A stretch of DNA of 36,348 nt from an uncultured Bacilli bacterium (GCA_947628685.1 CANRAT010000003.1:1-36348), one strand, 5' to 3'; shown: positions 4,935-32,900, counted from the first letter of the stretch. Made by a program: numbers and translations. Notes: generated from the sequence alone by a model not told the origin.

Positions 4935-6239
4935 ATGTTTGAAAGTTTAGGAGATAGGTTACAAAACGCAGTAAATAAAATAAGAGGTTATGGTAAAATT
5001 ACTGAAGATAATATTAGTGATGTAACAAGAGAGATACGTCTTGCGTTACTTGAGGCAGATGTTAATTATAAAGTAGTAAAAGAGTTTATTGCGAGTGTTA
5101 AGGAAAAAGCACTCGGTGAGGAAGTCACAAAAAGTCTAAAACCTAGTGAACAATTTGTAAAAATTCTAAAAGATGAGTTAGTAGACCTTTTAGGTGGAGA
5201 AAAAGAGGATTTATATGTAAGTGGAAATCCAAGTATACTTATGCTTGTAGGACTTCAAGGAAGTGGTAAGACTACAACTATTGGTAAACTTGCTTTATTA
5301 CTTAGAAAAAAATATAAGAAAAATCCTTTACTTGTTGCATGTGATGTGTATCGTCCTGCTGCTATCGATCAGTTAAAGACTATAGGTAAGGAACTTAACA
5401 TAGAAGTATATGAAGAAGGTAAAGAAAATCCTGTTACTATTGCTAAAAATGCAATTAAATATGCTAAAGAAAATAACTTTAACTATGTACTTATAGATAC
5501 TGCAGGAAGACTTCATATAGATAAAGAATTAATGGATGAATTAAAAAATATATCAAATGAAGTAAATCCTAATGAAACACTTTTAGTATTAGATAGTATG
5601 GTTGGACAAGATGCAGTTAATGTAATAGAAGGATTTAATAACGATCTTAAACTTACAGGTGCGATACTTACTAAACTTGATGGAGATACAAGAGGTGGTG
5701 CGGCACTTTCTATTAGACATTTAACTCATGTTCCAATTAAATTTGTAGGTGTAAGTGAAAAGATGGATGGACTCGATGAATTTTATCCGGATAGAATGGC
5801 TACTCGTATACTTGGTATGGGCGACATTATGACGATGATAGAGAAAGCAGAAGAAGTAATAGATGAAGATGAAGCAAGAAAAACTGCTAAAAAAATGGAG
5901 CAAGGTAAATTTGATTTAGAAGATTTCTTATCTACTTTTAAACAAATAAAAAAATTGGGACCACTAGAGAGTTTAATTAAAATGATACCAGGTGTACCAA
6001 AAGAGTTAAAGAGTGTTAAAATAGACTCTAAAGATATGGCACATATAGAGGCTATAATTCTTTCAATGACACCATATGAAAGAAGACATCCAGAAATTTT
6101 AAAAGCATCTAGAAAAATTAGAATTGCTAAAGGTTCAGCAAGAAGCGTAGAAGAAGTAAATAGATTGCTTAATCAATTCGAACAAATGAAAAAAATGATG
6201 AAAATGATGAAAAACGGAAATATGAAAATGCCATTTTAA
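4935..6239 (+). CDS. ffh: Signal recognition particle protein Ffh
   Basis: MFESLGDRL, GLQGSGKTT, DTAGR, TKLDGD.RGGAALS, Met-rich M domain with AIILSMT..ER and RIAKGS. Confidence 0.98.
   Translation: MFESLGDRLQNAVNKIRGYGKITEDNISDVTREIRLALLEADVNYKVVKEFIASVKEKALGEEVTKSLKPSEQFVKILKDELVDLLGGEKEDLYVSGNPSILMLVGLQGSGKTTTIGKLALLLRKKYKKNPLLVACDVYRPAAIDQLKTIGKELNIEVYEEGKENPVTIAKNAIKYAKENNFNYVLIDTAGRLHIDKELMDELKNISNEVNPNETLLVLDSMVGQDAVNVIEGFNNDLKLTGAILTKLDGDTRGGAALSIRHLTHVPIKFVGVSEKMDGLDEFYPDRMATRILGMGDIMTMIEKAEEVIDEDEARKTAKKMEQGKFDLEDFLSTFKQIKKLGPLESLIKMIPGVPKELKSVKIDSKDMAHIEAIILSMTPYERRHPEILKASRKIRIAKGSARSVEEVNRLLNQFEQMKKMMKMMKNGNMKMPF
5947..6238 (+). repeat. 292-bp direct repeat, copy 1 (ffh 3' end)
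   Basis: No mismatch seen on base-by-base reading against 17152-17443. Confidence 0.95.
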
Positions 6240-6255
6240 TATTCCATTTTAGACT
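6238..6255 (+). repeat. 18-bp imperfect direct repeat / palindrome half-site, copy 1
   Basis: AATATTCCATTTTAGACT versus AATATTCCAATTTAGACT at 16837-16854 (17/18 match). Confidence 0.7.
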
Positions 6256-6316
6256 TTAATATAAAAATAAACCTCTTTAATTGTATAATTTTTATATAGA
6301 ATAAAGAGGTTGTTTT

Positions 6317-9300
6317 ATGAGAGTTTCTTTAATAAAAAACGGTAAAATATATAATACAAATCTTCCACTTGAAATAAATGGAAGTTTTTGGGTTGAAGAT
6401 AAAGATAAAAACAATATAAAAAGAAACCTTATAAATATTGAAGCAAATAATTCTAAATGGGTTTTAAAAAGTAATTTTGAAACTAAAATAATATATAACG
6501 GCAATAATGTTGAAGAAGTAGTTCTTGAAAATTATAATTTTTATGAATTACAAGTAAAAGGAGAACAATATAATTACATTTTATATACATCACCTGTATA
6601 TGATGATAATTCTTGTGAATATGAAGTTTCAAACAACTGTCAAATATATATAGGTAATGGTGTTAATAACACAATTAACTATAATAACAGATATATACAA
6701 GATAAACAGTGTTTAATACAATCAACTAATGGAATATGGAGTATAAATAACTTAAATAATAACGGAGTAGTTTTTGTAAATGGTATTGCAGTAAGTAAAT
6801 CTAATCTTAATATAGGCGATGTTGTATTTATAATGGGATTAAAGATAATTATATGTGGTAATTTCATAATAATGAATAACGTTAAAGGAATAGTAAATTA
6901 TAATACACAAGTATTAAGAAAAAGAGAACCTTTAAATTTACCTGTTGAACCACAAGAAGAAAAAGAAGAAGATACAAGTTTAAAAGTATATGAAAAACAA
7001 GAGTATTTCTTTAGAATGCCTAGATTTAGAACAAGTGTTGAAGAAGATACAGTAGAAATAGATCCACCTCCAGAACAAGAAAAACCTGATGAAATGCCAC
7101 TTGCTTATACTATAGGTCCTATGCTTACAATGGGATTAACATCAATGGTATCTGGTATAACTTCAATAAATAATGTAATGGAAGGAACACAAACATTAAA
7201 GTCTTCACTTCCTTCACTTGTAACTTGTGGTGCAATGTTACTTAGTATGATATTTTGGCCTCTTTTACAAAAACAATATTCAAAAAATCAAAGAAAGAAG
7301 AAAGAAAAACTAAGAATAAAAAAATATAATGAATATATAGAAGAAAGAAGAGGATATATAAGAGGTATAGTTTCTCGTCAAAGACAATCTTTAATAGAAA
7401 ATAATATACCACTTTCTGATTGTAAACAAATTATATTGAATAGAAAAAGAAATCTTTGGGAACGTAAGATAGAGCACGATGATTTTCTTAATTTAAGACT
7501 TGGTATAGGAAATGTAGAACCTTTTGTAAAAGTAAAATATCCAGAGGAACATTTTTCTTTAACTCAAAACAATTTAAGAGAAGTTTTAGATAAATTAGGT
7601 GCAGAAACAAAGATAATGACTGATGTACCTGTAACAGTTAATTTAACTAAAAAATATATCTCAGCAATAGTAGGTAAAAAAGAAATAACTAAATCATTCA
7701 TAGATGGATTACTACTTCAACTTATGACATTTTATAGTTATGAAGATTTAAAAATAGTAATAATGACTTCTAAAGAAAATGAATATAAATGGAAATTTTT
7801 AAAAACATCTCCATATTTGAGTGATGATGATAAAACTATTAGATTTTTCTCAACAGATGTAGATGAGGCAAATCAAATATCAATATATCTAGATAATTAT
7901 TTACAAAATAGAAAATATCAAGATGGAGATACCTCTAAATTAAAAACTGAAGACTATAAATCATATAAACTATATTTTCTTATAATAACAGACGATTATC
8001 AGTCTTTAAGAAATATTGAAATAATAAAAGATGTATTATCACAAAAAATTAATCTTGGATTTAGTATGTTAATAGTACAGGAAAGACTTTTGGGACTTCC
8101 TAATGAATGTACGACATTTATAAATGTAGAAGCAAATGATTCTATAATATTTGAAAATGAACTTACAAGTGATAAACAACAAGTATTTAAAGCAGATTTT
8201 ATTGGAGATTTAAATATAGAAAGTGTAAGTAAAGTTGTTTCAAACATACCAATAGAAATGGCAAAAGATAGATATTCATTACCTGAAAAATTAGGATTTT
8301 TAGAGATGTATAATGTAGGTAAAATAGAACAGTTAAATCCACTTAACAGGTGGAAAAATAACAATCCTATAACTAGTCTATCTGCTCCCGTTGGAGTAGA
8401 TACTAATGGTGAATTATTTAAACTCGATTTACACGAGAAATTTCACGGTCCACACGGACTTATCGCAGGTATGACAGGAAGTGGTAAATCAGAATTTATA
8501 ATAACTTATATACTTTCAATGGCAGTTAATTACCACCCAGATGAAGTAGCATTTGTCCTAATCGATTATAAAGGTGGAGGACTTGCTGGTGCATTTGAAA
8601 ATAAAGAAACAGGTGTAAAAATTCCACATCTTGCTGGAACTATAACAAACCTTGATGTAAACGATATGAAAAGAAGTTTAGCATCAATAGAAAGTGAATT
8701 AAAAAGAAGACAAAAAATATTTAATGATGCAAGACAAAAATTAAATGAAAGTACAATAGATATATATAAATATCAAAAATTAAGAAGAGAAGGAAAAGTA
8801 GAAGAACCAATTCCTCACTTGTTTATTATAAGCGATGAATTTGCTGAATTAAAAACACAGCAACCAGAATTTATGGAAAAATTAATATCAACTGCTCGTA
8901 TAGGACGTTCTTTGGGTGTGCATTTAATTTTGGCAACTCAAAAACCTAGTGGAGTAGTAGACGATCAAATATGGTCCAACACTAAATTTAGAGTATGCTT
9001 GAAAGTTCAAGATAAGCAAGATAGTGTTGATATGATAAAATGTCCAGATGCTGCTTCACTTCATAATGTTGGTAGATTTTACCTCCAAGTTGGGTATAAT
9101 GAATTTTTCGCTTTAGGACAATCTGCTTATGCAGGAGTACCATATCAAAAAACAGACAAAATAAAAAGAAAAATAGATACTAATATAAGTTTTATTAATA
9201 ATGTAGGATATATAATTAAAAATGTTGATAAAGAAGAAGTAAACATTAATGCAAAAGCAAATGGAGAAGAGTTATCTAATATAGTTAATTATTTATATAA

Positions 9301-10951
9301 TTTAGGTAAAGAACAAAATGTATTTGCTAAAGATTTATGGTTAGATAAAATACCAGATAAAATATATGTAGACGAATTAGAGCAAAAGTATAATTATACA
9401 AGTGAAAAATGTATTATTAATCCTGTAATAGGAGAGTATGACGATCCTAATACACAGTCTAAACATTTACTCACATTACCATTATCTATAGAAGGTAACA
9501 CTATAATATATGGAGCAGCAGGAATGGGTAAAGATGACTTGATCCAAACTGTTATATATTCAACTATAACAAAACATACTCCAGAAGAAGTAAACTTCTA
9601 TATATTAGATTTTGGCGCAGAAACACTTAAACTATTTGAAAACGCACCACATATAGGAGATGTATTACTTTCTCTTGAGGCAGAAAAAATAAATAATTTA
9701 ATTAAAATGTTAAAACAAGAAATAGATACACGTAAAAAATTATTTTCAGAATATGGAGGAAGTTATTCGTCTTATATTAAAAATAGTGGTAAAATTATAC
9801 CTAACATAATAGTAATAGTAAATTTATATGAAGCATTTGATGAAATGTATTCTGAACTTCAAGATGATTTTAATAGTTTAACAAGAGAAGGTCATAAATA
9901 CGGAATAACATTTATATTAACAACAAATGGAGTTAATTTTATTAGATATAAATTAAAACAAAACTTTAAACAAAATTTAGTACTACAACTTAATGATGAA
10001 AATGATTATTCCGATATATTAGGAAATACACATGGATTATTCCCATCAAAAATAAAAGGAAGAGGACTTGTTAAGTTTGATGAAATATATGAATTTCAAT
10101 CTGCTAGTTTTAAAACTGATGAAAGTAGTGCTGAATATATTAAAAATTTATGTATAGAACTTGATAAAAAGTATGAAGTTAAAGCAAAGAAAGTTCCAAT
10201 TTTACCTAATACAGTTAATTTAGATATAGTAAAAGATTATATAAAAGGGTTAGATAGTATACCTGTTGGAATAGAAAAAAATAGCCTAGAGGTATCTACA
10301 TTTAATCTTAGAGTAAAACCTGTTACTATTATATCTTCAACTGAGACAACTGCTTTTGAATCATTCGTTCCTGAATTTATTAAAGTTTGTTCTTTTAATC
10401 GAAATATATCTATTAACATAATAGATGCAGAAAAATTATTTGAAAATGAAAAATTTACTGCAAATTACTATAAAGATAATTTTGATGATATATTTAATAA
10501 ACTATATTCATATACAGAAAGATTAAATCAAGTATATGTCTCAAATAACTATAGTACTGATGCAATTAAAAACTTTCAAGATTTACTTATTGTAATAATA
10601 GGTTTAACACACTTTAAAAATAAATTATCATCTGAATTACAAGAAAAGTTAGAAAACTTTATGATTATGATTAAGGATTTAAGAAAGATTAGTATAGTTA
10701 TTGTAGATACAATAGATAATATTAAGAGTTTTGAATATGAAAATTGGTATAAAACAGTAGTAGCTAATAACCATGCGATTTGGATAGGTGATGGAATAGG
10801 GGACCAATATACGATTAAATTATCTAAAACTCCAAAATATATTAAAGATGAAATTGGAAATAAATTTGGATATTCAGTTAAGAAGGGTAATCCAATACTC
10901 ATAAAAGTACTTAGTGATTCACCACAAGAGGAGGTTGAAGGTGACGAATAA
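6317..10951 (+). CDS. essC: Type VII secretion ATPase EssC, paralog 1
   Basis: N-terminal FHA-like region (IYIGNG..., VFVNG...LNIGDVV), two TM helices, WER...DDFL.LRLG, HGPHGLIAGMTGSGKSE, IDYKGGG, DEFAELK, RIGRSLGVHLILATQKP. Second ATPase has GAAGMGKD; the third domain is degenerate. Confidence 0.95.
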   Translation: MRVSLIKNGKIYNTNLPLEINGSFWVEDKDKNNIKRNLINIEANNSKWVLKSNFETKIIYNGNNVEEVVLENYNFYELQVKGEQYNYILYTSPVYDDNSCEYEVSNNCQIYIGNGVNNTINYNNRYIQDKQCLIQSTNGIWSINNLNNNGVVFVNGIAVSKSNLNIGDVVFIMGLKIIICGNFIIMNNVKGIVNYNTQVLRKREPLNLPVEPQEEKEEDTSLKVYEKQEYFFRMPRFRTSVEEDTVEIDPPPEQEKPDEMPLAYTIGPMLTMGLTSMVSGITSINNVMEGTQTLKSSLPSLVTCGAMLLSMIFWPLLQKQYSKNQRKKKEKLRIKKYNEYIEERRGYIRGIVSRQRQSLIENNIPLSDCKQIILNRKRNLWERKIEHDDFLNLRLGIGNVEPFVKVKYPEEHFSLTQNNLREVLDKLGAETKIMTDVPVTVNLTKKYISAIVGKKEITKSFIDGLLLQLMTFYSYEDLKIVIMTSKENEYKWKFLKTSPYLSDDDKTIRFFSTDVDEANQISIYLDNYLQNRKYQDGDTSKLKTEDYKSYKLYFLIITDDYQSLRNIEIIKDVLSQKINLGFSMLIVQERLLGLPNECTTFINVEANDSIIFENELTSDKQQVFKADFIGDLNIESVSKVVSNIPIEMAKDRYSLPEKLGFLEMYNVGKIEQLNPLNRWKNNNPITSLSAPVGVDTNGELFKLDLHEKFHGPHGLIAGMTGSGKSEFIITYILSMAVNYHPDEVAFVLIDYKGGGLAGAFENKETGVKIPHLAGTITNLDVNDMKRSLASIESELKRRQKIFNDARQKLNESTIDIYKYQKLRREGKVEEPIPHLFIISDEFAELKTQQPEFMEKLISTARIGRSLGVHLILATQKPSGVVDDQIWSNTKFRVCLKVQDKQDSVDMIKCPDAASLHNVGRFYLQVGYNEFFALGQSAYAGVPYQKTDKIKRKIDTNISFINNVGYIIKNVDKEEVNINAKANGEELSNIVNYLYNLGKEQNVFAKDLWLDKIPDKIYVDELEQKYNYTSEKCIINPVIGEYDDPNTQSKHLLTLPLSIEGNTIIYGAAGMGKDDLIQTVIYSTITKHTPEEVNFYILDFGAETLKLFENAPHIGDVLLSLEAEKINNLIKMLKQEIDTRKKLFSEYGGSYSSYIKNSGKIIPNIIVIVNLYEAFDEMYSELQDDFNSLTREGHKYGITFILTTNGVNFIRYKLKQNFKQNLVLQLNDENDYSDILGNTHGLFPSKIKGRGLVKFDEIYEFQSASFKTDESSAEYIKNLCIELDKKYEVKAKKVPILPNTVNLDIVKDYIKGLDSIPVGIEKNSLEVSTFNLRVKPVTIISSTETTAFESFVPEFIKVCSFNRNISINIIDAEKLFENEKFTANYYKDNFDDIFNKLYSYTERLNQVYVSNNYSTDAIKNFQDLLIVIIGLTHFKNKLSSELQEKLENFMIMIKDLRKISIVIVDTIDNIKSFEYENWYKTVVANNHAIWIGDGIGDQYTIKLSKTPKYIKDEIGNKFGYSVKKGNPILIKVLSDSPQEEVEGDE

Positions 10952-11192
10952 AATATTAGTTATTGTTGTTGTTCCTATGATAGAAGAGGAATATAATATA
11001 TATATTCCGGTTTCTAAAAGTATAAATGTTACAATAGAATTACTTGTAAAAACAATTAATGAACTATCAGAAGGACATTATCAAATAAAAAATAATGCTA
11101 AATTAATTTCAAGTAATGGTGAGGTATTTCCAAGAAATTATACTGTAAAAGCAAGTGGAATTAAAAATGGAGATAAAATAATTCTAATATAA
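10941..11192 (+). CDS. esaB: EsaB/YukD-like ubiquitin-fold T7SS protein
   Basis: About 83 aa with a beta-grasp pattern ending SGIKNGDKIILI; GTG start overlapping the end of essC; homologous to 17551-17805. Confidence 0.75.
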   Translation: MTNKILVIVVVPMIEEEYNIYIPVSKSINVTIELLVKTINELSEGHYQIKNNAKLISSNGEVFPRNYTVKASGIKNGDKIILI

Positions 11193-11961: not shown

Positions 11962-11975
11962 TAGAGGTGAATACT

Positions 11976-12344
11976 ATGTTAAGCAATAAAAATAAAATAG
12001 ATGAATTAACAAAAATGAAAAATGATTACAAAAAAAAATTAGATAGTTATAACAAATCACTAAATTATGCGAATAAATTATTAAGCATATTAAAAAGCAG
12101 TAATCAACAATTATTAAATACAAATGATGGATTACATGCATATTTTAACATAAATGGGAAAACACTAGACGGTGGAAAAGTAAAAGAGTTAAAAGATAGA
12201 GTGACAAATATAATAAATAAAATGGAAAATACAATAATACCAGGTATAAAAAGCAACATAGATACATTAAATAAAAAAATAAAAGATACAGAAAAGCAAA
12301 TAACTGATTTAAAAAGAGGAAATAGAAATATAGAGGTAAATTAG
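11976..12344 (+). CDS. Small helical T7SS effector helper (DUF5082/Lap-like by size and position)
   Basis: About 122 aa, coiled coil-turn (NGKTLDG)-coiled coil, directly upstream of the toxin; GAGGTG RBS. The family name is an inference. Confidence 0.55.
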   Translation: MLSNKNKIDELTKMKNDYKKKLDSYNKSLNYANKLLSILKSSNQQLLNTNDGLHAYFNINGKTLDGGKVKELKDRVTNIINKMENTIIPGIKSNIDTLNKKIKDTEKQITDLKRGNRNIEVN

Positions 12345-12355: not shown

Positions 12356-15300
12356 ATGGCTGAGCTAGTACTAAATGTAAGTAAAGTAAATTCATATGTA
12401 ATACCAAACATAAGAAAAATAGAAGAATTAATGCAAGAAGCATATAGTACTAGTAATACATTAAAGAGTGCTTTACCAAGTACATTTAATTATAGAAGTA
12501 ATGTAAGTGATATAGTAAGTGAAATATATGATATAAAAAAAGAAGTAAGTAAAGTAAATACTTTAATAAATGAAAAAATAACTCAGGCAGAAAGAATAGA
12601 GAATACTGGTGATAATAAGATATCAGGTATAACATCATTAATACACGAATTAAATGCAGAATCATATGTAAAAAATAATAAATCTTTTGAAAACAGACTT
12701 AATAGTAGAACAACATTTAACATGATGGAAGATAAAATCCCAATTTATAAATCTACGGTAACTATAAATCAAACAAAAGCAAGTGAACAAATACAAACAG
12801 ATTCAGAGAATGTTATTGAACAAAAAGAAAATAGTGTTGAAGTAAGTGAAGTAGAGGAACAATCTACATTAGATTGGGTTGGAGAAAAGATAGATGGGGC
12901 AATAGATTTTGCAGGAGAAATATTAGAAGCTACAGGCTCTTTTATATGTGATTTAGGAAGTACAATATGGGATGGAGTAACTTCAGTATTTGATTGGGTT
13001 ACAGACGGTGATAATTGGAAAGAATTATTAGAATCATTAGGAGCGTCTATAGCGAATGCAGTAATATCTTTTTCAAAAGGAGTAGTAGATTTAGTAGAAG
13101 CTATAGGAGATACTTGTGTAATAATAGGTACAGGTGTTGCAACAGTAGGAACGGCATTATATGATGTAGGATATGGAATAGCAACAGGAGATTGGGATTT
13201 TAATGCAACAAAAGGATTATGGGAAGGTGCAAAAACGGTAGTATCATATGATTGGAGTAATAAAATATATGATTCGTTGTATGATACAAAAGCAGGTAAA
13301 TGGCTTGATGAACATGCTTATGCACCATTTAAATCAGATGGAATAGCATGTCAAGTAATTGAGGGTGTAGGTTATGTTGCGGGTGTTGTTACTCTTTCAG
13401 TAGTTACTTTTGGAGCTGCAGGAGTTACATTTGGAGCGACATCTACAGTAGGAGGACTTTCGGTAAACGCTGGAGCAGTAGGAGTAACTGCCTTTGCTAC
13501 AGGATTATCAAAACATACTTCCGAAGAATGGAATAAAAACAGTATATCATTAAATTATGGTGGACAAGATATAGAAATACCAATTGATTATGAAAAATAT
13601 TTAGAAATAGAAAATCTAAAAGAAAATGAAACTACTACAGTTACTCAACAATATCAAGCAGATGATGGAAGTGTGCAAGAAATAATGTTTACAATTACTT
13701 CTAAAGGTAACAAAGAGTATGATATAATAGATAATATAGGTAATGTTGCAAGTTTAAATAGTTTAAATGAATCTAGTACCACTAAAGGACTTTTGAAAGG
13801 CGTAGGTGGGGGAATAGCAGATGGATTTAAATATTATACAGCTATTTCTACTCTTGGTAATTTTCAGTCACTAGCAGGAATGATTAAGCATTTAGGATCT
13901 GGGAATTATGGAAAAGGTGTAGTATCATTATTTAAAAATTTTGGATTCAAACAAGCCTTTAAACCATTAGTTAAAAATGCAGCTAAAGCTACATTTAAGG
14001 ATATAGGATTTTATATAGATTCAGGTACATTTATATCAGGTGAGATAAAATCTGGAATTCAAACAGGAGAATGGAATTTAAAAAATATTGGTGCTGGAAT
14101 ATTTAGTGCATATACAAATAACTTTTTAGGAAATTTAGGTGGTGAATATTTCGGTAGTGGGTTAGGCTCTGCAATGAATAATATTGAAAAATCAAGAGTT
14201 GAGTTAGATACTAGTCCATATTCTTTTAATGAAAATGATCTAAATTATAAGCATTCAAATGTGGTTAAAGCTGCATCTAACAGAGTTGAATCTAATATAA
14301 ATAGGTATAGATATACAGATACTAATTTAGTTGATGGATTAAATGATAGTATAAAAGAGAATGGACTTTATCATTTCTCTTCAAATGTGGATGATATTAT
14401 AGATAGTGGCTATGTTAGATCTAGTGGTTATTTTAGTTCTTATGGTGAAAGAAAAAGTTTCTTTTTCAATGGCGTTCCTGAAGTTGGAGCATATGCTTCT
14501 AATTTAGATGGTATACCTCTTAAAACAGAAGCAGTTAAAATTTTTCCAAGCGATGACATAATTAATAGTTCAAAATTAAAAGTTAGAAATTATGATGATT
14601 TTGCTGTTACATATAGTGGCGATTTAAGATTCGATTCAAATAATGCAGCAAAGCAGTACTTCGTTTTGCGTAAGGTTGATGATAAATTGGTTTATGCTAA
14701 TGTTAACAAAGCATTCTATGATAATTATCAAAATACTGCAGAAGGTTTGGCTGTAGCTGAATTTATAAGTAAAAAGAAAAACGTTGATTTAATCAAACAA
14801 GATTATTATTATAATTTGTCAATGAAGAGTACTAATGCACAAATAACTTATTCCAAAGTTAAAAATAGTATAATAGAATCTGATAAAGGCAGTATAGATA
14901 TACCATCAAGTATTAATCATACTATAAATTTAAATGATATCAAAGATTATAAAAAATTTAGTGATTCAACTGAACTAATAAAGAAAAAACTTTGTTCAGT
15001 ATATGAACTTGATTATGATAGCAATGTAGCAGACAGAATGATGGTTAATGGAATTATGGAAATAATTGATGATAATAAATTTACAGATGAAAATGTTAAA
15101 TATATATTTGAGCATCTTGATAAATTAAAAGAGCATAATAAGTATTTGAGTTTTGCTACATATGATGGTACTTCAAGATATTTTGGTGGAGTTGACCAAT
15201 TGCAGATGGGTTTATCTGATTTAGATTCTAGTTGTAGAATGGTATTATCACATGAATTAGGACATACATCATACCAATGTGTGTTACCAGGAAAGACTAA

Positions 15301-15988: not shown

Positions 15989-15990
15989 AG

Positions 15991-16209
15991 ATGAATGAAA
16001 ATCAAAAATATATTGCTTATTGTTTATTACAAAATGAATATTTAAAAAGACAAGGTATATTACAAAATGAAAGTTTAGAGAATATAACACATTTTTTCCC
16101 AGAAGATTGGTTTTTATATAAATTGGATGCAAGGATTAATTTTATTAAAAAAGCATTGAAAGAAAACAAAAAATTGGAAGATATCTTAATTGGAGCTAAA
16201 CATTATTAA
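15991..16209 (+). CDS. Candidate immunity protein
   Basis: 72 aa, 2 bp after the toxin stop, with its GGAGG RBS inside the toxin end. Function inferred from position only. Confidence 0.55.
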   Translation: MNENQKYIAYCLLQNEYLKRQGILQNESLENITHFFPEDWFLYKLDARINFIKKALKENKKLEDILIGAKHY

Positions 16210-16242
16210 ATTTTGAATAACACTAGAAGGAGGAAAGAAAAA

Positions 16243-16563: not shown

Positions 16564-16586
16564 AAAAGAGATCAATTATCTCTTTT
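16564..16586. terminator. Probable bidirectional terminator
   Basis: AAAAGAGAT-CAATT-ATCTCTTTT between the convergent DUF4176 and XRE genes. Confidence 0.65.
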
Positions 16587-17150: not shown

Positions 17151-17151
17151 C

Positions 17152-22502: not shown

Positions 22503-23255
22503 ATGATAGAGTTAATAAGTAATAAAATAGTATTGGATGGCAATTATGAAATTAGAGAATATTATACAGATAATGGGATTGTAAGAACATTTTGCTCTGA
22601 TGGACAGATTCAGTCAGCAGAATATATTGATAAAGAAAAAAGAGATTTTTTAGTATTAAATTATCTTACTTTTTTTAATATACCATTTGACTTAAACCCT
22701 AACGGAAAAGATTGTTTAATGTTAGGTGGAGGAACATTAACATATCCAAGTTATTTTTTAAGAAATTTTTTTGATAAAAAAATAGATGTTGTTGAAATAG
22801 ATAAATATTGTATAGATATTGCACAAAAATACTTTTTTATTGCTGAAACTTTAAAAAAATATGATTTAAATAGAGAAAGGATTAATATAATTATTGAAGA
22901 TGCGGTTAATTATGTTGAAATTTGTAATAAAAAATATGATTACATTTTAATAGATTTATTTAAAGGTAAAAATCCACTAAAAGGTATATACAAAAAAGAT
23001 AGTTTACTTAACATAAAAAATTTGTTAAATAAAGGAGGAATCATAGTAGCAAATTACATAATGTTTAAAGAGAATAGTTATAAAGAAGATATAGAAAATT
23101 TAATTAATTTATCTAAATATTACAAAATAATTACCGATAAAGAAAATTATGATTTTCAAAATAAATTTGGGAATGTGTTTGTAATATTATCTGATAATGA
23201 AATAGTAATTCAAAATAAATATAATTATATTGAATTAGATAAGGATGTGATTTAA
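22503..23255 (+). CDS. Spermidine-synthase-like class I SAM-binding protein
   Basis: CLMLGGG (motif I), IDVVEID, IIIEDA..YV, KYDYILIDLF, LNKGGIIVAN. Confidence 0.8.
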   Translation: MIELISNKIVLDGNYEIREYYTDNGIVRTFCSDGQIQSAEYIDKEKRDFLVLNYLTFFNIPFDLNPNGKDCLMLGGGTLTYPSYFLRNFFDKKIDVVEIDKYCIDIAQKYFFIAETLKKYDLNRERINIIIEDAVNYVEICNKKYDYILIDLFKGKNPLKGIYKKDSLLNIKNLLNKGGIIVANYIMFKENSYKEDIENLINLSKYYKIITDKENYDFQNKFGNVFVILSDNEIVIQNKYNYIELDKDVI

Positions 23256-24477: not shown

Positions 24478-24507
24478 TTAAAGTTTTAGCAAAAAGGAGT
24501 GAATTGT

Positions 24508-27420
24508 ATGTTTAAAAGTGAAGCAAAATTATTTTTAAGTGCAAATAACAATGTTAATTCTGCTAAAACTTTAATAAATGAATGTAAAAGATTAATTGTT
24601 GATTTTGATTTGACTGGAGATTCAAATAGTAATGATTTAAAAAATAATATTAATAACTGCAATATAGATTCTCTAGTAGATAAAATTGAAGAAACAAAAG
24701 AAAGTTTAATGAAATTAGACCAAACTTTTGCAAGTGAATATATGACTTTATTGCAAGAATATCTTCAATCACAAACAATAGATACATCAAGCATGACAGA
24801 AGAAGAACAAATGAAATATAGTATACAAATGAATGCTTATGCCAGGGATTATAATCAAAATCTTTTATATATGTTAGAAAGATATGAAGAATCAGGAATG
24901 TTAACGGATGAGATGAAACAGCAACTAGAATATCAAAGAGAACTAGTTGCTCAATACGATATAAAAGATAAAATGGCTGTTTTAGATTCTACAAGTGAGG
25001 AATATATTGATTTATTTAAAAAGAATGCAGAAAGTGATAGAAAATTAATTAATTTAGATCCGAGTTTAACTGAAGAGCAAAAAGTATCGTATTTAAATGC
25101 ATACGAGACGAATTATAATCAGCAATTACAAGCTTTACAAGAAGCAATAGATTATAAATTAAAAAATGATAAATTAGAGAAAGAATTACAGGATTTATAT
25201 AAAGCAAAAGAAGATAATAATGGATTTTTTCACCCATTTGTTGAGAGTGAAATAGAAGAAGCTATTTTAGATAAGAAAATAGAGATAGGTAAGTTTAATC
25301 CAAAGAGTCCATATGCAGCAACAGAGGATGATATAGATTATAAAAATATGAATGGATGGGATAGATTTTGGACAAATACAGGGACATTTTTAACATCAAC
25401 ATTTACAGGCTTATACGACATATCAGAAGGAATTGAAGACGGATTTATTACTTTAGGTAGTGCAGTAGGCATAGTAGATAAAGATTGGGCTACGGAATTT
25501 GTAAGTAAAGATTTATCAGGGGAATTATATCAAGGAATAGTTCTTAATAAAGGAATGAATACAACTTCTGCTTATGGAACTTGGCACGAAGTAGGCGAAG
25601 TATTTGGTGGTTTTGTAGGTAAAGTAGGTATGTCCTTTGCGTGTCCTTGGGTAAATACAGTTATGAGTGGATTAAGCGCAACGGGGCATCAAGCAGAGAT
25701 ATCGTTTAATAATGGTGATGATTATTGGATGGCAGTAGGTAAAAGTTTTATTTCTGGAATTGGAGGAGCAGCAGAAGGATTTGCATACAGTAAGATGAAA
25801 ATGGCATTTCGAGAAATGCGTGGCAAGGGAACTATTAAACAGTTATGGAAACAAGTAATTACAAATGGTGAAACTTTGTCTAAAGAAGGATTAAAACAAG
25901 TAGGTAAAACATTTGGACATTCTTTAATTTCAGCAGCTATAGATCCAGATAGTTTAATTGAATCTGGATGCGTGGTAGCAAATGATTTTATGAATTTTTT
26001 AGCAACTGAAGAATTTAATTTAGAAGAAACTTTGAAAAAAGTAGGCAAAGCATATTTGTATAATTTAGGCATAAAATTTGCAAGTGATTTAGCATTTGGT
26101 TATGAGCCGTTTGGTAAAAAAGTAGATGAACTTGTCAATTCTAATGTAGCAGAACAACATTTTAAAAATAAAAATGCTGACATTTTGTTACAAAATAGCA
26201 ATTTATCAAATATAGATTATGTGGTCGAAATAACAAGCAAAATGGATGAATATAATCAACTATTAGACAATGCATCAGATGATGTAAAATATGCTTTAGA
26301 AGAAGCAAAAAGTGGCCATGCTATTGGTTTTAGTAGTCAGGCAGATGTTGATGTTTATACTAAACTTTCTAAATTACAAAAGGAAATTGGAGATTTACAG
26401 AAACATATTAATTTAAATATAAATACTAATGTTGGTAAGATCGATTCAGCACAACGAGCAAAAATAAAGGGAACTAATATAGATGTTGTATATGCCTATG
26501 ATGAATGTTTAAAACCATATGAAGGTAGAATCTATGAAACATATGGAATGACAAATTTACCAAAAGAGCAAGTCATAGATAACTTGGAAACAATAAAAAA
26601 ATATGACGGTCGTACTATTGGTGATAAACTTGATACTATAAGGAAAAATGAAGGACAATATTCTATTAAATCAGTTACTGCTGAATCAACTGCAATGCAA
26701 ACAATTATTGAAATAAGGCAAAGTTCTGTTCAATCTAAAGTTAGTAAAAGTCATAATAAAATTAGTGTGGTTCAAAAACAAGTGGATGACATGCTTGAAT
26801 TGACAAATTCATCACAATATAAACAATTTAAAACTCCAAAAGAAGCTAGAAAATATTTTAAAAGTGATCTAGAATATTGGGATTCTGCTCAAAAAAGTAT
26901 ATCACTGGATGATCCTAAACATCTTGGCTATGAAGGGATGCGCAAGTATACTGATTCAAAATATATATATATGAATCCATATATGCGAAATATAGGCCCA
27001 CTAAATTCAAAATCTGAAGCATTAATAGGTAATTTAGCAAATACATTAGATGAATTTAAGCTACAAGATGATATAGTTTTTTATAGAGGCGTTGACGAAT
27101 TAAATTGGTTACTTAAAGAAAATAATTTACCTATTGGTTCGGAAAATTTAAAATTATTATCTGGTGGAACTGTTATTGTAAGTGATAATGCATTTATGAG
27201 TGTCACTCCAGTAATGGGCGAAGGATTTACATACAAGAAAATTGTTGAAGTTATAAAAGCGCCAGCTGGAACAAAAGGTTTATTTGTCGATACATTTTCA
27301 TCATGTCCAGATGAGGTTGAATTTCTTATTCAAGCAGGTGAAGGTAATAGAAAAGTTTTGCAGGCAGTTGAAGAAATTGGCGATCAAATATTTGTTTACA
27401 GTGTGATTGTACCTAAATAG
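24508..27420 (+). CDS. T7SS polymorphic toxin with a C-terminal VIP2/C2-like ADP-ribosyltransferase
   Basis: LTG turn near the N-terminus, Gly-rich middle, and C-terminal YT...Y..MN..MR, VFYRG (catalytic R at 27085), AFMSVT, APAGTKGLFV, DEVEFLI (ExE at 27313-27321). Confidence 0.88.
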   Translation: MFKSEAKLFLSANNNVNSAKTLINECKRLIVDFDLTGDSNSNDLKNNINNCNIDSLVDKIEETKESLMKLDQTFASEYMTLLQEYLQSQTIDTSSMTEEEQMKYSIQMNAYARDYNQNLLYMLERYEESGMLTDEMKQQLEYQRELVAQYDIKDKMAVLDSTSEEYIDLFKKNAESDRKLINLDPSLTEEQKVSYLNAYETNYNQQLQALQEAIDYKLKNDKLEKELQDLYKAKEDNNGFFHPFVESEIEEAILDKKIEIGKFNPKSPYAATEDDIDYKNMNGWDRFWTNTGTFLTSTFTGLYDISEGIEDGFITLGSAVGIVDKDWATEFVSKDLSGELYQGIVLNKGMNTTSAYGTWHEVGEVFGGFVGKVGMSFACPWVNTVMSGLSATGHQAEISFNNGDDYWMAVGKSFISGIGGAAEGFAYSKMKMAFREMRGKGTIKQLWKQVITNGETLSKEGLKQVGKTFGHSLISAAIDPDSLIESGCVVANDFMNFLATEEFNLEETLKKVGKAYLYNLGIKFASDLAFGYEPFGKKVDELVNSNVAEQHFKNKNADILLQNSNLSNIDYVVEITSKMDEYNQLLDNASDDVKYALEEAKSGHAIGFSSQADVDVYTKLSKLQKEIGDLQKHINLNINTNVGKIDSAQRAKIKGTNIDVVYAYDECLKPYEGRIYETYGMTNLPKEQVIDNLETIKKYDGRTIGDKLDTIRKNEGQYSIKSVTAESTAMQTIIEIRQSSVQSKVSKSHNKISVVQKQVDDMLELTNSSQYKQFKTPKEARKYFKSDLEYWDSAQKSISLDDPKHLGYEGMRKYTDSKYIYMNPYMRNIGPLNSKSEALIGNLANTLDEFKLQDDIVFYRGVDELNWLLKENNLPIGSENLKLLSGGTVIVSDNAFMSVTPVMGEGFTYKKIVEVIKAPAGTKGLFVDTFSSCPDEVEFLIQAGEGNRKVLQAVEEIGDQIFVYSVIVPK

Positions 27421-29383: not shown

Positions 29384-29404
29384 AAAGCAATTATTTGCTT
29401 TTTT
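29384..29404 (+). terminator. Intrinsic terminator
   Basis: AAAGCAA-TTAT-TTGCTTT followed by a T run. Confidence 0.6.
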
Positions 29405-29411
29405 AATTTAT

Positions 29412-29700
29412 TAGGGAAGTGTTTTATAAAAATATAAAAAAGTAAACAAAATACGTTTACAGACATTTGTTTGAATGATATGATGAACATCATAAATGGC
29501 TAAAAGAATTAGATATTTGCTATTTAGAAATAGTTATTTAATTTAGATAATACATTTAAAAGATACGGAGATAAACCAAAATTTGAATCAAAAATAAAAG
29601 TAGAAAATCAGAAAAAATAAATAACATTATAAGTATTTATTAAGGTAAAATATATAACTCAATAAAAATATAATCATATTATCAAAATTAAAATAAGAGA
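29412..29700 (+). mobile_element. Heavily deleted IS200/IS605 tnpB remnant
   Basis: Collinear similarity to 35579-36016 (e.g. TGATATGATGAACAT, TTAGAAATAGT, CATTTAAAAGATAC, ATAAACCAAAATTT, AAAATAAAAGTAGAAAATCA, AAGGTAAAA) with no intact ORF. Confidence 0.8.
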
Positions 29701-29728
29701 TAATAACTTTTATTTTATAATTAATAGC

Positions 29729-29928: not shown

Positions 29929-29957
29929 TTGACATAAGTACAAATGTTTGCTATTAT
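29929..29957 (+). promoter_or_regulatory. Sigma-A promoter of the SNF2 gene
   Basis: TTGACA-17 bp-TATTAT with TGn; GAGGTGG RBS downstream. Confidence 0.7.
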
Positions 29958-29982
29958 ATATATGTTTATTTGAGGTGGTTTT

Positions 29983-32900
29983 ATGGATATAGATGAAATG
30001 TTAAAAAAAGAATTAGGAATGGATTCATATACTAAAGGTAAAAATTATTCTAGAAATGTTTATTTAAGTGATGTAAGTAAATCTGGAAAATATCTTTCTT
30101 TTTTCAAATTTTTTGTTCAATCTGAAAGAAACCATGAATACTATACAGTAAATATATTTTTAAATAATGGCGAAATTTTTAGGTATCACTGCACTTGTGA
30201 ACAATTTAATGCATATGATACTTGTAAACATGTTGCAGCATGCTTTATAAAATATAAAAGAGATATATTCCCTAAACCATTAGATGAGTATGATATTTCT
30301 AAAAATATATTAGATTATTTTAGTAAAGATAAGTCTACTAATAATATAAAAGAAAAACTTAATTTAGATGTTGAACTAGATTTTACTCATGGTAAAATAA
30401 TGGCGTATATTTCGATAGGATTAAATAAGACATATGTAATAAAAAGTGAAAGTAAACTTGCTTCATTCCTAAACGCATATAAAAAAGAACAATATAGATT
30501 TGGGGCTAATTTCTTGTATGACCCTAATATACATTACTTATCCATAGAAGATGAAAATATATTAAATTTTTTTACAGGATATGAAAAATCGAATTCTAAT
30601 ATTTATTATTACCACCGTTCTAACAATAATCCATTTGAGTTAAACTTAAGAGAATTTAGAGCTTTCTTAAAATTATTAGATGGTAAAGAATTTAAAATAA
30701 AAGATCATGGAATAATAAAACAAATAAAAGAAGATGTGCCAATAAATTTAAAATTAGATTATAATAATGACCACTATGAACTTTCATTTGATAATGAAAA
30801 TGAGTGCTATGTAATAGATGATGAATATAAATATATTGTTCATAATGAGACTTTTTATATAGTTCCTAAGGATATATCAGAAATTTTAAAATTAAAAAAT
30901 GAATCTAAAGTAGAAAAAATAGTATTTAAAAAAGAAAATACTGAAATGTTTAAAAAGGGTTTATTAAGTAGAATAAAAAATAATTTAAGTATAACTGAAA
31001 ATGTAAAAGATATAATTATTTCTGGTAAACCTACTATATCATATTATTTCGATTTTTCAAAAGATTGCATAACTTGTAAGATTAAATTTGATTATAAAGG
31101 GAATATAATAGATTACTTTGATAAACAAACAAATATTTTAAGAGATGAACAAGCAGAACAAAGTGCTTTGATTGAATTAGTTAATTATAAATTTAAAATA
31201 GGAAGTAATAATATTATTTTGGATAATCTAGAGGATATATGTAACTTTATAGAAAATGGAATACAAGAATTAAATCAAAAATATAGTGTATATACAACGA
31301 AAAAAGTAGATGATATCAAAATAATTAAAAAGAGTAATATAAATTCTAATTTTTCAATTGGTAAAGATGCAATAATGTCTTATAATTTTGACGTAGATAA
31401 TATAGATTTAAATGAACTTGGTAAAGTATTATCTGAGCTAAAACTTAAAAAGAAATATTATAAATTAAAAAATGGAAATATAATTGACTTATATGAAAAT
31501 AAAGAATTAAATGAACTTAATGAAATATTTGACGATTTAGATATAAATAGTAAAAAAATAGAAGAAGGCATTATAGAAATACCTAAATATAGAGCATTTT
31601 ATATAGATAGTTTAAAGAAAAATAAATATAAGTCAATAAATACTGATAATTCATTTAATAAATTTATTAAAAATTTTGAGGAATATAAAAAAGTTAAAAT
31701 AAATTTTGATGAAAAAGACGAAAAGATACTTAGAGATTATCAAAAAGAGGGAGTTAGATGGTTATACACACTTTATAAATGTGATTTAGGTGGAATATTA
31801 GCAGATGAAATGGGTCTAGGTAAAAGTTTACAGACTATATGTTTTATAAAGCAAATTTTAAAAGAGAAAAATGATGCTAAAATAATGATTGTATGTCCAA
31901 CTTCACTGGTATATAACTGGAAAAAGGAGTTTGATAAATTTGCGCCTGAACTAAAATATATAACTGTTGCAGAAAATAAAAAGAAAAGATTAGAAATAAT
32001 AAAAAATATAGATAAATATAACGTATTTATAACATCATATGGTTTAATTAGAAATGATAATGATGAGTATGAAAATGTAAACTTTGAGGTTTGTGTTATA
32101 GATGAAGCGCAAGCGATTAAAAACTATCAGGCAAATATGAGTAAAGAAGTAAAAAAAATTAAGTCTAGAACTAAGATAGCTCTAACTGGAACTCCTTTAG
32201 AAAATTCAGTATTAGAACTATGGAGTATATTTGATTTCATTATGCCTGGTTATTTAAATAATATATCAAAATTTAAAGAAAATTATGGTATTAGTGATAT
32301 TGATTTAAAATCTTTAGAAAGGTTAAAAAAATTAAATTATCAAATAAAACCTTTTATATTAAGAAGAAAGAAAAAGGATGTATCAAAAGAACTTCCAGAT
32401 AAGATAGAAAATAATATATATTTAGAATTACCTGATATTCAAAAGGCTCTTTATTTAAATGTAGTTAAAACAACCAAGGAAGAGATGGATGAATTAATTA
32501 AGACTGAAGGCTGGTCTAAAGCAAGATTTAAAATATTACAGTTACTAACAAAATTAAGACAAATATGTATAGATCCTAGTGTTTTATATGAAGATTATAA
32601 AGGTGAATCAATAAAATTAGAAAAATTACTTGAAATAGTAAAAGATTACATAAAAGAAGGACATAAAATATTAATATTTAGTAGTTTTAAAAGAATATTA
32701 GATAAAGTAAATAAAAAGTTTAATAAGGAAGGAATTAAAAGTTATACCATAAATGGAGATATTGATTCTAAAGATAGAATGAATTTAGTTGAAAGTTTTA
32801 ATACTGATGATACAAATTGTTTTTTAATCACACTGAAAGCTGGAGGTACAGGACTTAATTTAACAAGTGCAGATATAGTAATACATCTAGATATATGGTG

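Follow-up and report, generated by a model that had tools for sequence, protein, structure and literature searches.

Two type VII-like cassettes stacked downstream of ffh and joined by an SNF2'::'ffh scar in an uncultured gut bacterium of the Bacilli

Between ffh and an SNF2-family helicase gene of an uncultured gut bacterium of the Bacilli, two different type VII-like cassettes stand in tandem, joined by a fusion of fragments of the two border genes. The order along the contig is ffh, cassette 1, xre, an SNF2 5' fragment fused to an ffh 3' fragment, cassette 2, an xre remnant and SNF2. This arrangement shows that a second cassette was added together with its borders and that the first was kept. 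Since the cassettes are old, separate lineages (46% identity between their EssC ATPases), the event was an addition rather than a replacement, as a preliminary description of this DNA had proposed. We tentatively favor the reading that the arrangement is a real chromosomal structure, in which one illegitimate join of the tandem-duplication type united two pre-existing alternative cassettes; the recombination route and the identity of the resident cassette are what we infer from it. The source is a metagenome bin of 94 contigs (92% complete, 6.4% estimated contamination), and the window is the whole stretch of 36,348 nucleotides that was analyzed.

The ffh-SNF2 site and its scar

The following features make up the borders of the two cassettes and the join between them.

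4935..6239, + strand: ffh (SRP GTPase), intact, left border; Pfam SRP54 254.7 bits, also SRP_SPB and SRP54_N
5947..6238, + strand: repeat copy 1, the last 97 codons of ffh; 100% identical to 17152-17443
16572..16808, - strand: xre-type HTH regulator, intact, 78 aa; HTH_3 40.3 bits
16838..16876, no strand: palindrome with an 18-bp stem in the xre-SNF2 spacer, deleted in copy 2; possibly an operator
16986..17151, + strand: SNF2 5' fragment of the scar, codons 1 to ~54, dead; codon 12 is a TAA stop, and homopolymer indels of -1 and +1 are present
17152..17444, + strand: ffh 3' fragment of the scar, consisting of repeat copy 2 and the last base of the stop codon; repeat search and blastn
17460..17488, + strand: promoter-like site before cassette 2, within the native spacer downstream of ffh; 10/12 consensus positions, such sites not being enriched over shuffles
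29398..29706, + strand: decayed IS605-family tnpB relic, reduced to the left end of the element and the 5' portion of tnpB; PF07282, PF01385 and PF12323 are matched by complete copies on C14 and C19
29710..29870, - strand: xre remnant, 3' part only, dead; blastn alignment to the intact xre
29983..33138, + strand: SNF2-family helicase, intact, right border; SNF2-rel_dom 247.9 bits, SNF2_assoc 223.9 bits, Helicase_C

A repeat search, together with blastn of the unit at 5947-17151 against 17152-30158, confirmed the proposed layout, ffh-[T7 cassette 1]-xre-SNF2'::'ffh-[T7 cassette 2]-xre remnant-SNF2. Both methods detected an exact direct repeat of 292 nt (5947-6238 and 17152-17443), whose identity ends at the ffh stop codon, and a single unit of 11,205 bp is delimited exactly by the perfect copies. 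Further blastn matches join the 3' part of xre (16595-16756 with 29710-29870, 87% identity) and the xre-SNF2 spacer with SNF2 codons 1-53 (16900-17145 with 29897-30142, 90.7% identity), and the remaining similarity between the units lies in the EssC core only (67% over 3.1 kb). The cassettes thus have the same left and right neighbors and diverged content, as had been described: repeats bracket both units, EssC identity is 46%, and the toxins are unrelated.

Tandem-duplication join points form at short microhomologies, where a right end is joined to a left end in the pattern A-B-C'::'A-B-C. Here, the DNA is SNF2-like up to 17145 and ffh from 17152, the six intervening bases (17146-17151) fit neither gene, and the crossover bears a short A/T-rich microhomology. 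SNF2 codons 1 to ~54 are fused to ffh codons 338-434, with intact ffh upstream and intact SNF2 downstream, and once two homopolymer indels have cancelled out, the SNF2 reading frame passes into that of ffh without a shift. As at a tandem-duplication join point, the unit's right and left ends therefore meet where they have a few bases in common. Unlike at such a point, the cargo of the two units is non-homologous, with only 292 nt plus ~400 nt of similarity left, and this lack of homology stabilizes the structure.

A conserved gene whose 3' end is directly repeated is a typical mark of an integrative element, and a tnpB relic does lie in the region. A site-specific mobile element that targets the ffh 3' end, with the 292-nt repeats as attachment sites, is nevertheless very improbable: neither a recombinase nor tnpA was found within the repeat-bounded unit (5947-17443), the tnpB relic lies outside it, next to the xre remnant of the other unit, and the unit's right end is a fragment of the chromosomal neighbor SNF2, which is not expected element cargo. 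The window also contains no tRNA or Rfam element. Pfam and NCBIfam searches detected no integrase in the window, in agreement with the earlier statement that integrase and transposase are lacking; for transposases the statement holds for intact genes only, given the decayed tnpB fragment at ~29398-29706.

Two self-contained modules of separate lineages

Judged from its gene families, each cassette appears to be a self-contained minimal type VII module, with its own EssC, YukD-like protein, WXG100 protein, large polymorphic toxin, candidate immunity protein and DUF4176 protein. Cassette 1 is composed as follows.

6317..10951, + strand: EssC1 ATPase; TIGR03928 (T7_EssCb_Firm) 1031.7 bits, cut-off 778.4; FtsK_SpoIIIE
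10914..11192, + strand: YukD/EsaB-like small protein, a weak match; PF08817 18.9 bits, below the cut-off of 27
11312-11584 and 11602-11892, + strand: two WXG100-type small proteins; PF06013 41.1 and 22.8 bits, the first also TIGR03930 45.3 bits, cut-off 44.85
11967..12344, + strand: 125-aa helical protein; weak coiled-coil-type matches only
12356..15988, + strand: large candidate toxin 1, 1210 aa; no family match
15991..16209, + strand: 72-aa ORF; no family match
16213..16563, + strand: DUF4176 protein, last gene of cassette 1; PF13780 97.3 bits

Cassette 2 carries a different set.

17551..17805, + strand: small YukD-like protein, by homology to ORFs of relatives; no Pfam match
17806..22425, + strand: EssC2 ATPase; TIGR03928 995.2 bits, cut-off 778.4
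22503..23255, + strand: spermidine-synthase-like methyltransferase-fold protein; PF01564 58.4 bits
23385-24011, + strand: 208-aa WXG100-type protein; PF06013 35.5 bits; TIGR03930 32.9 bits, below the cut-off of 44.85
24070-24477, + strand: 135-aa protein, read as membrane/coiled-coil; weak coiled-coil matches only
24499..27420, + strand: candidate toxin 2, 973 aa, with a C-terminal ADP-ribosyltransferase domain; PF03496 51.7 bits, cut-off 23.4, in the C-terminal 306 aa
27634..28830, + strand: ADP-ribosylglycohydrolase; PF03747 246.7 bits
29010..29372, + strand: DUF4176 protein, last gene of cassette 2; PF13780 90.1 bits

Both cassettes encode the EssC-type FtsK/SpoIIIE ATPase of T7SSb (TIGR03928) and WXG100 proteins (PF06013 in both, TIGR03930 above its cut-off in cassette 1 only). 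No EssA, EssB or EsaA was detected in the 92%-complete genome, where PF10140 gave only 18.2 bits, elsewhere, and TIGR03926, TIGR03929 and PF10661 gave nothing; all four profiles found Bacillus subtilis in the control set. The absence of these three proteins makes the modules T7SS-core-like (A, B and C components) rather than canonical T7SSb. The YukD-like gene follows EssC in cassette 1 and precedes it in cassette 2. The ORF at 10914-11192 occupies the position of the small ORF after EssC in relatives, and in tblastn the protein from 17551-17805 matched the same ORFs as its cassette 1 counterpart in L015, L017 and L021. An LXG domain was found in the N-terminal 250 aa of neither toxin (Pfam, E up to 5), and the toxin context is LXG-like, with WXG-like helpers, DUF4176 and a variable C-terminus. 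If the modules do secrete and kill, whole-cassette stacking would keep each toxin with its own ATPase, since the cassettes are self-contained.

The N-terminal part of candidate toxin 1 (residues 1-858 or less) is common to the type-1 cassettes of relatives, and its variable C-terminal part contains an HExxH motif, read from the translation. The 125-aa protein is kept at the same position in type-1 cassettes and might, at a guess, be a toxin partner protein; the 72-aa ORF is, purely by position, a candidate immunity gene. Tre1-Tri1 is a type VI-delivered pair of an ADP-ribosyltransferase toxin and an ADP-ribosylhydrolase immunity protein. Cassette 2 likewise encodes a predicted ADP-ribosyltransferase toxin and an adjoining ADP-ribosylglycohydrolase, with matches to both families (PF03496 and PF03747). 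Candidate toxin 2 also matches the PDB entries 8za7_B (Lmo0066, E 3.7e-13) and 5urp (Toxin 2A, E 0.0024). The hydrolase is a candidate immunity protein for it, and its best NCBIfam match is the Tri1 ADP-ribosylarginine hydrolase NF041672. It is not an equivalog (187.4 bits, below the cut-off of 490), and, in contrast to Tre1-Tri1, the pair sits in a type VII-like cassette.

Aligned over their full length, EssC1 and EssC2 share 46% identity. Each has much closer orthologues in sister species: 80-87% for EssC1 (G021, G011, G015, L124 and L125) and 76.5-79% for EssC2 (G024 and G022), the type-2 cassette of G024 also encoding the spermidine-synthase-like protein. Two old cassette lineages were thus brought together, rather than a duplication having diverged in place. 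The latter, with divergence of both copies, has the tandem topology in its favor, and it is almost certainly wrong: gene order and content differ, the toxins are unrelated, and the borders differ by only 9-13%. We consider it refuted by the 46% identity between EssC1 and EssC2 as against 76-87% to orthologues in other species.

The site in sister species and the history of its borders

We compared the stretch after ffh in 23 sister genomes from a collection with one genome per species. No EssC was present in eight of them, one cassette in seven and two stacked cassettes in three; one stretch was cut off inside EssC and four offered too little sequence. In G002 and G006, ffh is followed directly by SNF2 and by RNase Y, respectively. 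Across sister species the site is therefore variable, as had been claimed, and both right-hand gene orders of the present site occur there, as type 1-DUF4176-xre-SNF2 (G020) and type 2-DUF4176-xre-SNF2 (G022). No single-cassette allele of the present species was found in this collection. The 11.2-kb unit was seen in no other genome examined, and an exact search of metagenome contigs with a 36-nt stretch spanning the junction returned no match. For EssC2, the nearest relatives from metagenomes have 70% identity.

None of four inter-cassette spacers tested (in the stacks of G011, G015, G024 and G022) contains an ffh, xre or SNF2 scar, so the scar route is not the general way in which this genus accumulates modules. 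The suggestion of an integrase-free accumulation of whole modules accordingly stands as far as the missing integrase is concerned and is unsupported as a genus-wide route. In another species, G012, EssC at another locus is preceded by the native spacer and by what is left of a decayed ffh 3' end (~109 nt, with 80% identity to the ffh of G012), suggesting that these cassettes likewise traveled with a piece of ffh.

Both spacers between the ffh stop and the cassettes resemble ffh-downstream spacers of sister species, the one ahead of cassette 2 being conserved in relatives, and in five sister species an xre orthologue closes the cassette array on its right. The two copies of xre and the SNF2 5' end are mutual closest relatives (87-91%, against ~71% to G020 and G022), which places the borders in the same or a very close lineage. 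The second xre copy lacks its first 52 coding bases, and ~117 bases, the palindrome included, are missing altogether. Among 16 xre differences in 142 nt, 11 are derived in the dead remnant and three in the intact gene (two ambiguous). SNF2 shows 10 differences and two indels in 158 nt, seven derived in the dead fragment, two in the intact gene and one ambiguous; five of the seven are non-synonymous as read from the alignment. The dead copies thus carry ~6% derived changes (18 in 300 nt), and this complementary decay argues for a genuine, non-trivial history beyond assembler invention.

By contrast, no change was seen in the 292 nt of the ffh fragment, where ~17 would be expected at the dead-copy rate. 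Simple recent integration does not account for a pristine repeat beside decayed dead copies. Either the join is recent and the copies were dead already in the parent alleles, or the ffh fragment was homogenized, or the assembler collapsed small differences.

In the reading that we favor, SNF2 codon ~54 would have been joined to ffh codon ~338 at the short A/T microhomology, setting two alternative ffh-downstream cassettes side by side, each with its native left border (ffh 3' end and spacer) and right border (xre and SNF2 start). Most economically, this would have happened in one event while the second allele was in the cell. Homology could have anchored one side of the incoming DNA and an illegitimate join the other, and the product fits such homology-facilitated illegitimate recombination as far as sequence can tell; unequal illegitimate exchange would give the same product.

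A possible but less probable history has two steps, namely a tandem duplication of ffh ... SNF2 by illegitimate sister-chromosome exchange, followed by a homologous cassette swap in one copy via the duplicated borders. The topology is exactly that of a tandem-duplication join point, within this lineage the two xre/SNF2-5' copies are sisters of each other, and a later swap with its left crossover in or beside the ffh fragment could have reset that fragment to identity. Two or three events would be needed where one is enough, however, and a perfect tandem duplication of 11-13 kb is unstable unless selected. In a variant of this history, a stacked array was duplicated and a different cassette was lost from each copy; possible starting stacks exist in the genus (G011, G015 and G024), but differential loss must then recreate two native-looking junctions. 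One-step and two-step routes yield an identical product and are indistinguishable here.

The Campbell-type circle first suggested is only one of several routes to this product, beside homology-facilitated illegitimate recombination, unequal illegitimate exchange, and site duplication with cassette swap. In that account, a scar-closed circle of ffh-cassette 1-xre-SNF2 enters and leaves ffh by RecA across the 292-nt repeat, possibly repeatedly. The perfect repeats around exactly one unit agree with it, and repeated recombination with functional ffh would maintain perfect identity beside a decayed scar. We nonetheless regard it as improbable, there being no sign of a circle or of anything carrying one between cells and no copy of the unit in the other genomes examined; forming the circle would itself require the same illegitimate join.

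A short-read assembler can mis-route across an exact repeat of 292 nt, which is one point against our preferred reading. The scar might be real DNA and the contig mis-routed through the repeat; the true state might be, for example, a strain with ffh-cassette 2-SNF2 and another molecule or strain bearing cassette 1 and the scar, as a circle or a cassette 1 tandem array. The source is a bin of many contigs with some contamination, and the repeat exceeds typical short-read length. We used Logan contigs in place of reads, so that depths are contig depths and not copy numbers. In one public run, independent contigs contain the scar version (14890-17083) and the intact version (29066-30080) with no differences and at a depth of 6.5 each. 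The contig over the ffh repeat has a depth of 10.2, about twice that of either version, and the long pieces listed for the run have similar depths (4.5-6.5 in cassette 1, 6-7.1 in cassette 2). None of the 32 contig pieces listed, beside which a further 650 exist, bridges 17146-17152 or the repeat, and at 17232 the contig of one run has C in place of the window's T. Three additional runs, which belong to two other studies, also contain short, nearly identical pieces of both cassettes, so that the cassettes co-occur in 4/4 runs and three studies. Elsewhere in the bin, xre, SNF2 and the scar have no further copy at which an alternative array might end, and an 11.2-kb circle that lacks a replication gene would be implausible at chromosomal depth. 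Taken with these depths and co-occurrences, false linkage is unlikely.

Comparison with known systems and implications

In Staphylococcus aureus, Listeria and streptococci, strains with a T7SSb typically carry one essC with a variable 3' end, plus genes for EsaA, EssA and EssB. Their essC-linked variable modules (e.g., PMC10765036; PMC9900821) resemble the present cassettes in that alternative toxin, immunity and accessory sets occupy one site and co-vary with the EssC type, with DUF4176 and WXG100-like helper genes beside large toxins. Here, in contrast, the difference extends over the whole EssC, two cassettes stand in tandem, and the genome searches detected none of EssA, EssB and EsaA. The T7SS variants c to j, including T7SSf of Clostridia, are described as built on a core of a WXG100 protein, a YukD-like protein and an ATPase of the FtsK type that carries FHA-like domains at its N-terminus (PMC11217815). 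The cassettes appear to share this core, especially with T7SSf, as well as adjoining candidate substrates (LXG-like or Rhs in that account) and the occurrence of more than one system in some genomes, but they lack a PPM phosphatase, a kinase and a separate FHA protein. The co-occurring systems described there are separate loci of different subtypes, not stacked at one site (PMC11217815).

Our finding is a variant of a known theme in which modules are added rather than replaced. Effector-immunity arrays of the Vibrio cholerae T6SS are proposed to grow by homology-facilitated illegitimate recombination, and C-terminal displacement and orphan arrays in Rhs loci are cited in the same work as a related idea (PMC5361080). 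As in the arrays described there, an incoming toxin module was added at a conserved site with no clean replacement and no integrase, remnants were left, and polymorphic toxin/immunity arrays were built. Unlike in that description, what was added is a complete secretion module that includes its own ATPase rather than an effector-immunity pair, the old toxin was not displaced, and the scar fuses fragments of both housekeeping-type border genes, making it the join point for the whole site (PMC5361080).

It is conceivable, albeit doubtful, that the scar has made cassette 1 a portable insert that needs only RecA, and that repeated capture keeps the 292-nt fragment pristine while the unused SNF2 fragment decays. 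If so, the unit could loop out as an 11.2-kb circle via the perfect copies of the ffh 3' end and be copied by homologous recombination into any genome of the same species, after ffh and ahead of the resident cassette. This would amount to an integron-like but integrase-free stacking of whole secretion-plus-toxin modules at an essential gene.

The join and the two cassettes

A repeat search of the window and a blastn comparison of its two units, the first of which (5947-17151; 11,205 bp) is bracketed by an exact direct repeat, confirmed the layout set out in the preliminary description: two type VII secretion cassettes stand in tandem after ffh, and the start of SNF2 is fused to the end of ffh between them.

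Repeated sequences and tnpB copies in the window
5947-6238 and 17152-17443: last 97 codons of ffh, 292 nt, exact direct repeat; identity stops at the ffh stop codon
16595-16756 and 29710-29870: 3' part of xre, 87% identical (blastn)
16900-17145 and 29897-30142: xre-SNF2 spacer plus SNF2 codons 1-53, 90.7% identical (blastn)
~29398-29706: more decayed tnpB relic of the IS605-family element also found at 35669-36247; it lies after the last gene of cassette 2 and before the xre remnant
35669-36247: 192-aa ORF, internally deleted copy of the IS605-family tnpB, with ~410 nt missing

Elsewhere between the units, blastn found only the EssC cores to be alike (67% over 3.1 kb). The sequence is SNF2-like up to 17145 and belongs to ffh from 17152, with six bases between them that are assignable to neither origin, and the crossover site has a short A/T-rich microhomology. 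This is the join-point topology of a tandem duplication, with the unit's right end joined to its own left end. The first copy of xre is intact; the second is shorter by about 117 nt in total, a loss that takes in its 5' end and a palindrome with an 18-bp stem. In the SNF2 fragment of the scar there are two homopolymer indels, one -1 and one +1, and codon 12 is a stop.

Gene order in the cassettes
Cassette 1: EssC (EssC1), weak YukD-like ORF, two WXG100-type proteins, 125-aa helical protein, 1210-aa protein, 72-aa ORF, DUF4176 protein
Cassette 2: small YukD-like ORF, EssC (EssC2), spermidine-synthase-like protein, 208-aa WXG100-type protein, 135-aa protein, 973-aa toxin candidate, 74-aa ORF, ADP-ribosylglycohydrolase, DUF4176 protein

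Against the NCBI curated EssC model (cut-off 778.4 bits), EssC1 scored 1031.7 and EssC2 995.2 bits. The 1210-aa toxin candidate of cassette 1 has an HExxH motif near its C-terminus, and family-model and PDB searches found neither a family match nor a solved relative for it; its sole PDB match, a mitochondrial ribosomal protein (E 0.0067), was taken as chance. At its C-terminus, the 973-aa protein gave matches to PF03496, the ADP-ribosyltransferase exoenzyme family (51.7 bits), and to Lmo0066, whose structure is solved (E 3.7e-13). For the ADP-ribosylglycohydrolase, the best NCBIfam match was the Tri1 immunity hydrolase, below the cut-off of that model. A link between LXG toxins and DUF4176 proteins is described in the literature (PMC12482557). 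Judged by the families to which their proteins belong, the modules would be expected to secrete and kill.

A third EssC gene, also accompanied by a YukD-like ORF, lies at another locus on contig C37, and EssC followed by a YukD-like ORF was likewise the common pattern among 80 metagenome loci scanned. Despite these three EssC genes, four family models, each of which detected Bacillus subtilis in the control set, found no EssB, EsaA or EssA genome-wide. The type VII sets here appear to be reduced to the ATPase, a YukD-like protein and WXG100 proteins, and the cassettes therefore contain just the three components that nearly all T7SS variants have in common according to Garrett and Palmer (PMC11217815). 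Directly upstream of the C37 EssC is a gene with a prepilin-type N-terminal methylation motif (PF07963), which is a paralogue of the gene at window positions 20-1300. The latter has no Pfam match itself and belongs to a large family, with paralogues of 65-80% similarity on C37, C38, C40, C43, C23, C16, C19, C21, C64 and C68.

Assembly and decay of the scar

The window takes up all of contig C3 of a binned genome. This genome comprises 1.29 Mb in 94 contigs, with 26% G+C, an estimated completeness of 92% and contamination of 6.4%; the runs that hold the sequence of the window are labelled rabbit gut metagenome. Within the window, this genome of a Bacilli/Tenericutes lineage, only 1.3 Mb in size, also carries two genes for alpha/beta-type small acid-soluble spore proteins (2660-2869 and 4626-4838), which share 71% nucleotide identity.

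We compared Logan contigs of four public runs with window positions 10200-30199. In the best run, a 2194-nt contig matched 14890-17083 (the end of cassette 1, xre and the scar version of the SNF2 start) and a 1015-nt contig matched 29066-30080 (the end of cassette 2, the tnpB relic, the xre remnant and the intact version), both with 0 differences. Each has a depth of 6.5, and both end where the sequence is exactly common to the two versions. Depths of the remaining long pieces listed for this run were 4.5-6.3 for cassette 1 and 6-7.1 for cassette 2, and the contig over the ffh repeat had a depth of 10.2. These values, which are contig depths and not copy numbers, lend weak support to the presence of both cassettes and of two ffh ends in a single genome. 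In three further runs from two other studies, both cassettes were represented by short, near-identical pieces. Joints between contigs with sides of 20-29 letters at a likeness of 90 were unreliable and left out of account, and neither uncovered stretches nor the low word shares of runs X5-X7 were counted as evidence of absence or habitat. Because none of the 32 contig pieces listed, out of a set with 650 more, bridges the join or the 292-nt repeat, the linkage rests on the original assembly. An exact 36-nt pattern of the junction had 0 matches among public metagenome contigs, and the rest of the bin holds no second xre, SNF2 or scar able to close an alternative structure.

We polarised the differences between the two copies of xre and the SNF2 5' end using two sister-species genomes, G020 and G022, as outgroups. 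Eleven of the 16 substitutions in the xre part are derived in the dead remnant and three in the intact gene. For the SNF2 part, the dead fragment carries the derived state at seven of 10 substitutions and at both indels, and the intact gene at two; five of the seven derived changes in the fragment are non-synonymous, as read from the alignment by eye. Change in the dead copies is ~6% overall. This complementary decay argues strongly for a scar that exists in the organism and against an assembly product.

The 292-nt ffh fragment, although equally dead, shows 0 changes where ~17 would be expected at ~6%. The join may be recent, with SNF2 in the allele that held cassette 1 and xre in the one that held cassette 2 having died beforehand; other possible explanations are a recent conversion of the fragment by the intact gene, its refreshment by repeated homologous capture, and the collapse of a few real differences by the assembler. 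At 17232 (and 6027), both repeat copies of the window have T, whereas every covering contig of runs X1 and X5 reads C, and in run X5 the contigs come in two versions, distinguished at 17255, 17258 and 17264. These differences may lie between the repeat copies or between strains and be hidden by the assembly. Population data on the pristine ffh fragment beside the decayed scar could measure gene conversion or recombination-driven mobility of the cassettes.

The site downstream of ffh in the genus

Our collection covered 27 species of the genus, the present one included, and the stretch after ffh was taken for 23 of them and scored by tblastn. EssC followed ffh within the fetched stretch in 11: seven have a single cassette (G001, G004, G005, G013, G014, G018 and G021), three a stack of two (type 3 then type 1 in G011 and G015; type 3 then type 2 in G024), and in G008 the contig stops within EssC. 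Eight of the 23 have no EssC across 3-19 kb, with SNF2 directly after ffh in G002 and RNase Y in G006, and in four the contig end was too near for scoring. SNF2 was found in seven of the 27 genomes, and xre closes the cassette array on its right side in five species, whether SNF2 is present or not.

Both spacers that follow an ffh stop codon in the window are similar to the ffh-downstream spacers of relatives. G020 reads type 1 tail-DUF4176-xre-SNF2, and G022 reads type 2-DUF4176-xre-SNF2 with its EssC cut down to residues 5-332. Each cassette of the window is thus natively bordered on both sides, which bears out an inference of the preliminary description. The DUF4176 protein of the G022 type 2 cassette (locus L026, G022:C8, 6171-9214) shares 95% identity with its counterpart in the window, against just 76% for the SNF2 beside it; these identities hint at a recent between-species exchange of the right end of the cassette.

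EssC1 and EssC2 share 46% identity over their full length, and the toxins of the two cassettes are unrelated. Orthologues of EssC1 at 80-87% identity occur in G021, G011, G015 and two further MAG contigs (L124 and L125), and those of EssC2 at 76.5-79% in G024 and G022. Since these values exceed the 46% between EssC1 and EssC2, the union of the cassettes is far younger than their split, which excludes duplication in place followed by divergence.

Using blastn (word size 7) with the ffh, xre-SNF2 and scar sequences of the window, we found no ffh, xre or SNF2 sequence in the inter-cassette spacers of four sister-species stacks (L018, L021, L026 and L032). A scan of species-representative genomes with EssC1 returned 48 loci, with one more stack of type 3 plus type 1 (L127) and no additional ffh or SNF2 scar (blastn). 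Metagenome contigs were scanned with EssC2 for alleles of the same species; the best of the 80 loci had 70% identity, and tblastn at E <= 1e-6, which short fragments would escape, detected no ffh, SNF2, xre or second EssC in their flanks.

A decayed ffh 3' remnant was found in G012. It spans ~109 nt, is 80% identical to the ffh of that genome and contains stops, indels and a 24-nt internal tandem duplication. The remnant lies downstream of uvrC (L120, G012:C11, ~5100-5245) and after it come the native spacer found downstream of ffh and an EssC with ~40-43% identity to each of the three EssC proteins in the genome of the window; the intact ffh of G012 is on a different contig, and the next 10.4 kb hold no type VII genes. 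The G012 cassette was relocated together with its ffh border, and its remnant shows what an old ffh scar looks like. Together with the scar in the window, this makes at least two occasions in the genus on which a cassette travelled with part of ffh.

Routes to the stack and significance

Family-model, tRNA and Rfam searches of the window found no integrase, recombinase, tRNA or Rfam element, and an integrative element or a tRNA-linked island was rejected on these grounds. The unit bounded by the 292-nt repeats does not include the tnpB relic, for which we see no role in the join. Full copies of tnpB (387-390 aa; PF07282, PF01385 and PF12323) occur at C14:12967-14136 and C19:11319-12479 and are ~97% identical in their shared part; C14 has a 98-aa mini-version in addition. 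The contig probably breaks here because the window runs out within this repeat family.

In our favored reading, a single illegitimate join added a second allele of the site, borders included. The closest described process is homology-facilitated illegitimate recombination, by which effector-immunity arrays of the Vibrio cholerae T6SS have been proposed to grow, as have Rhs orphan arrays in work cited there (PMC5361080). Nearly as likely is a history in two steps, in which the site was duplicated and a cassette then swapped, with a product identical to that of the one-step join. The preliminary description had given as an example a third route, Campbell-type integration of a circle; its interpretation is supported in part, as with the native borders on both sides, and the circle is without direct support.

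At polymorphic toxin loci, turnover is thought to proceed mostly by clean allelic replacement via conserved borders, and the evidence for occasional addition of modules comes mainly from arrays of leftovers, among them Rhs orphans and T6SS immunity arrays. The theme of addition instead of replacement is already known. New here are the size of what was added, an entire secretion module; a scar that fuses two genes; and the stacking of minimal type VII cassettes after ffh in uncultured gut Bacilli. The locus gives a readable join for the addition of a complete secretion module, ATPase included. With whole cassettes kept, each toxin set stays with its own ATPase, and a cell keeping both modules has two toxins and two immunity candidates. 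The locus also suggests that minimal type VII modules have a hot spot downstream of ffh in a group of uncultured gut Bacilli with small genomes. If EssA, EssB and EsaA are truly absent, few type VII gene sets are simpler, and these would lend themselves well to finding what the core machine needs.
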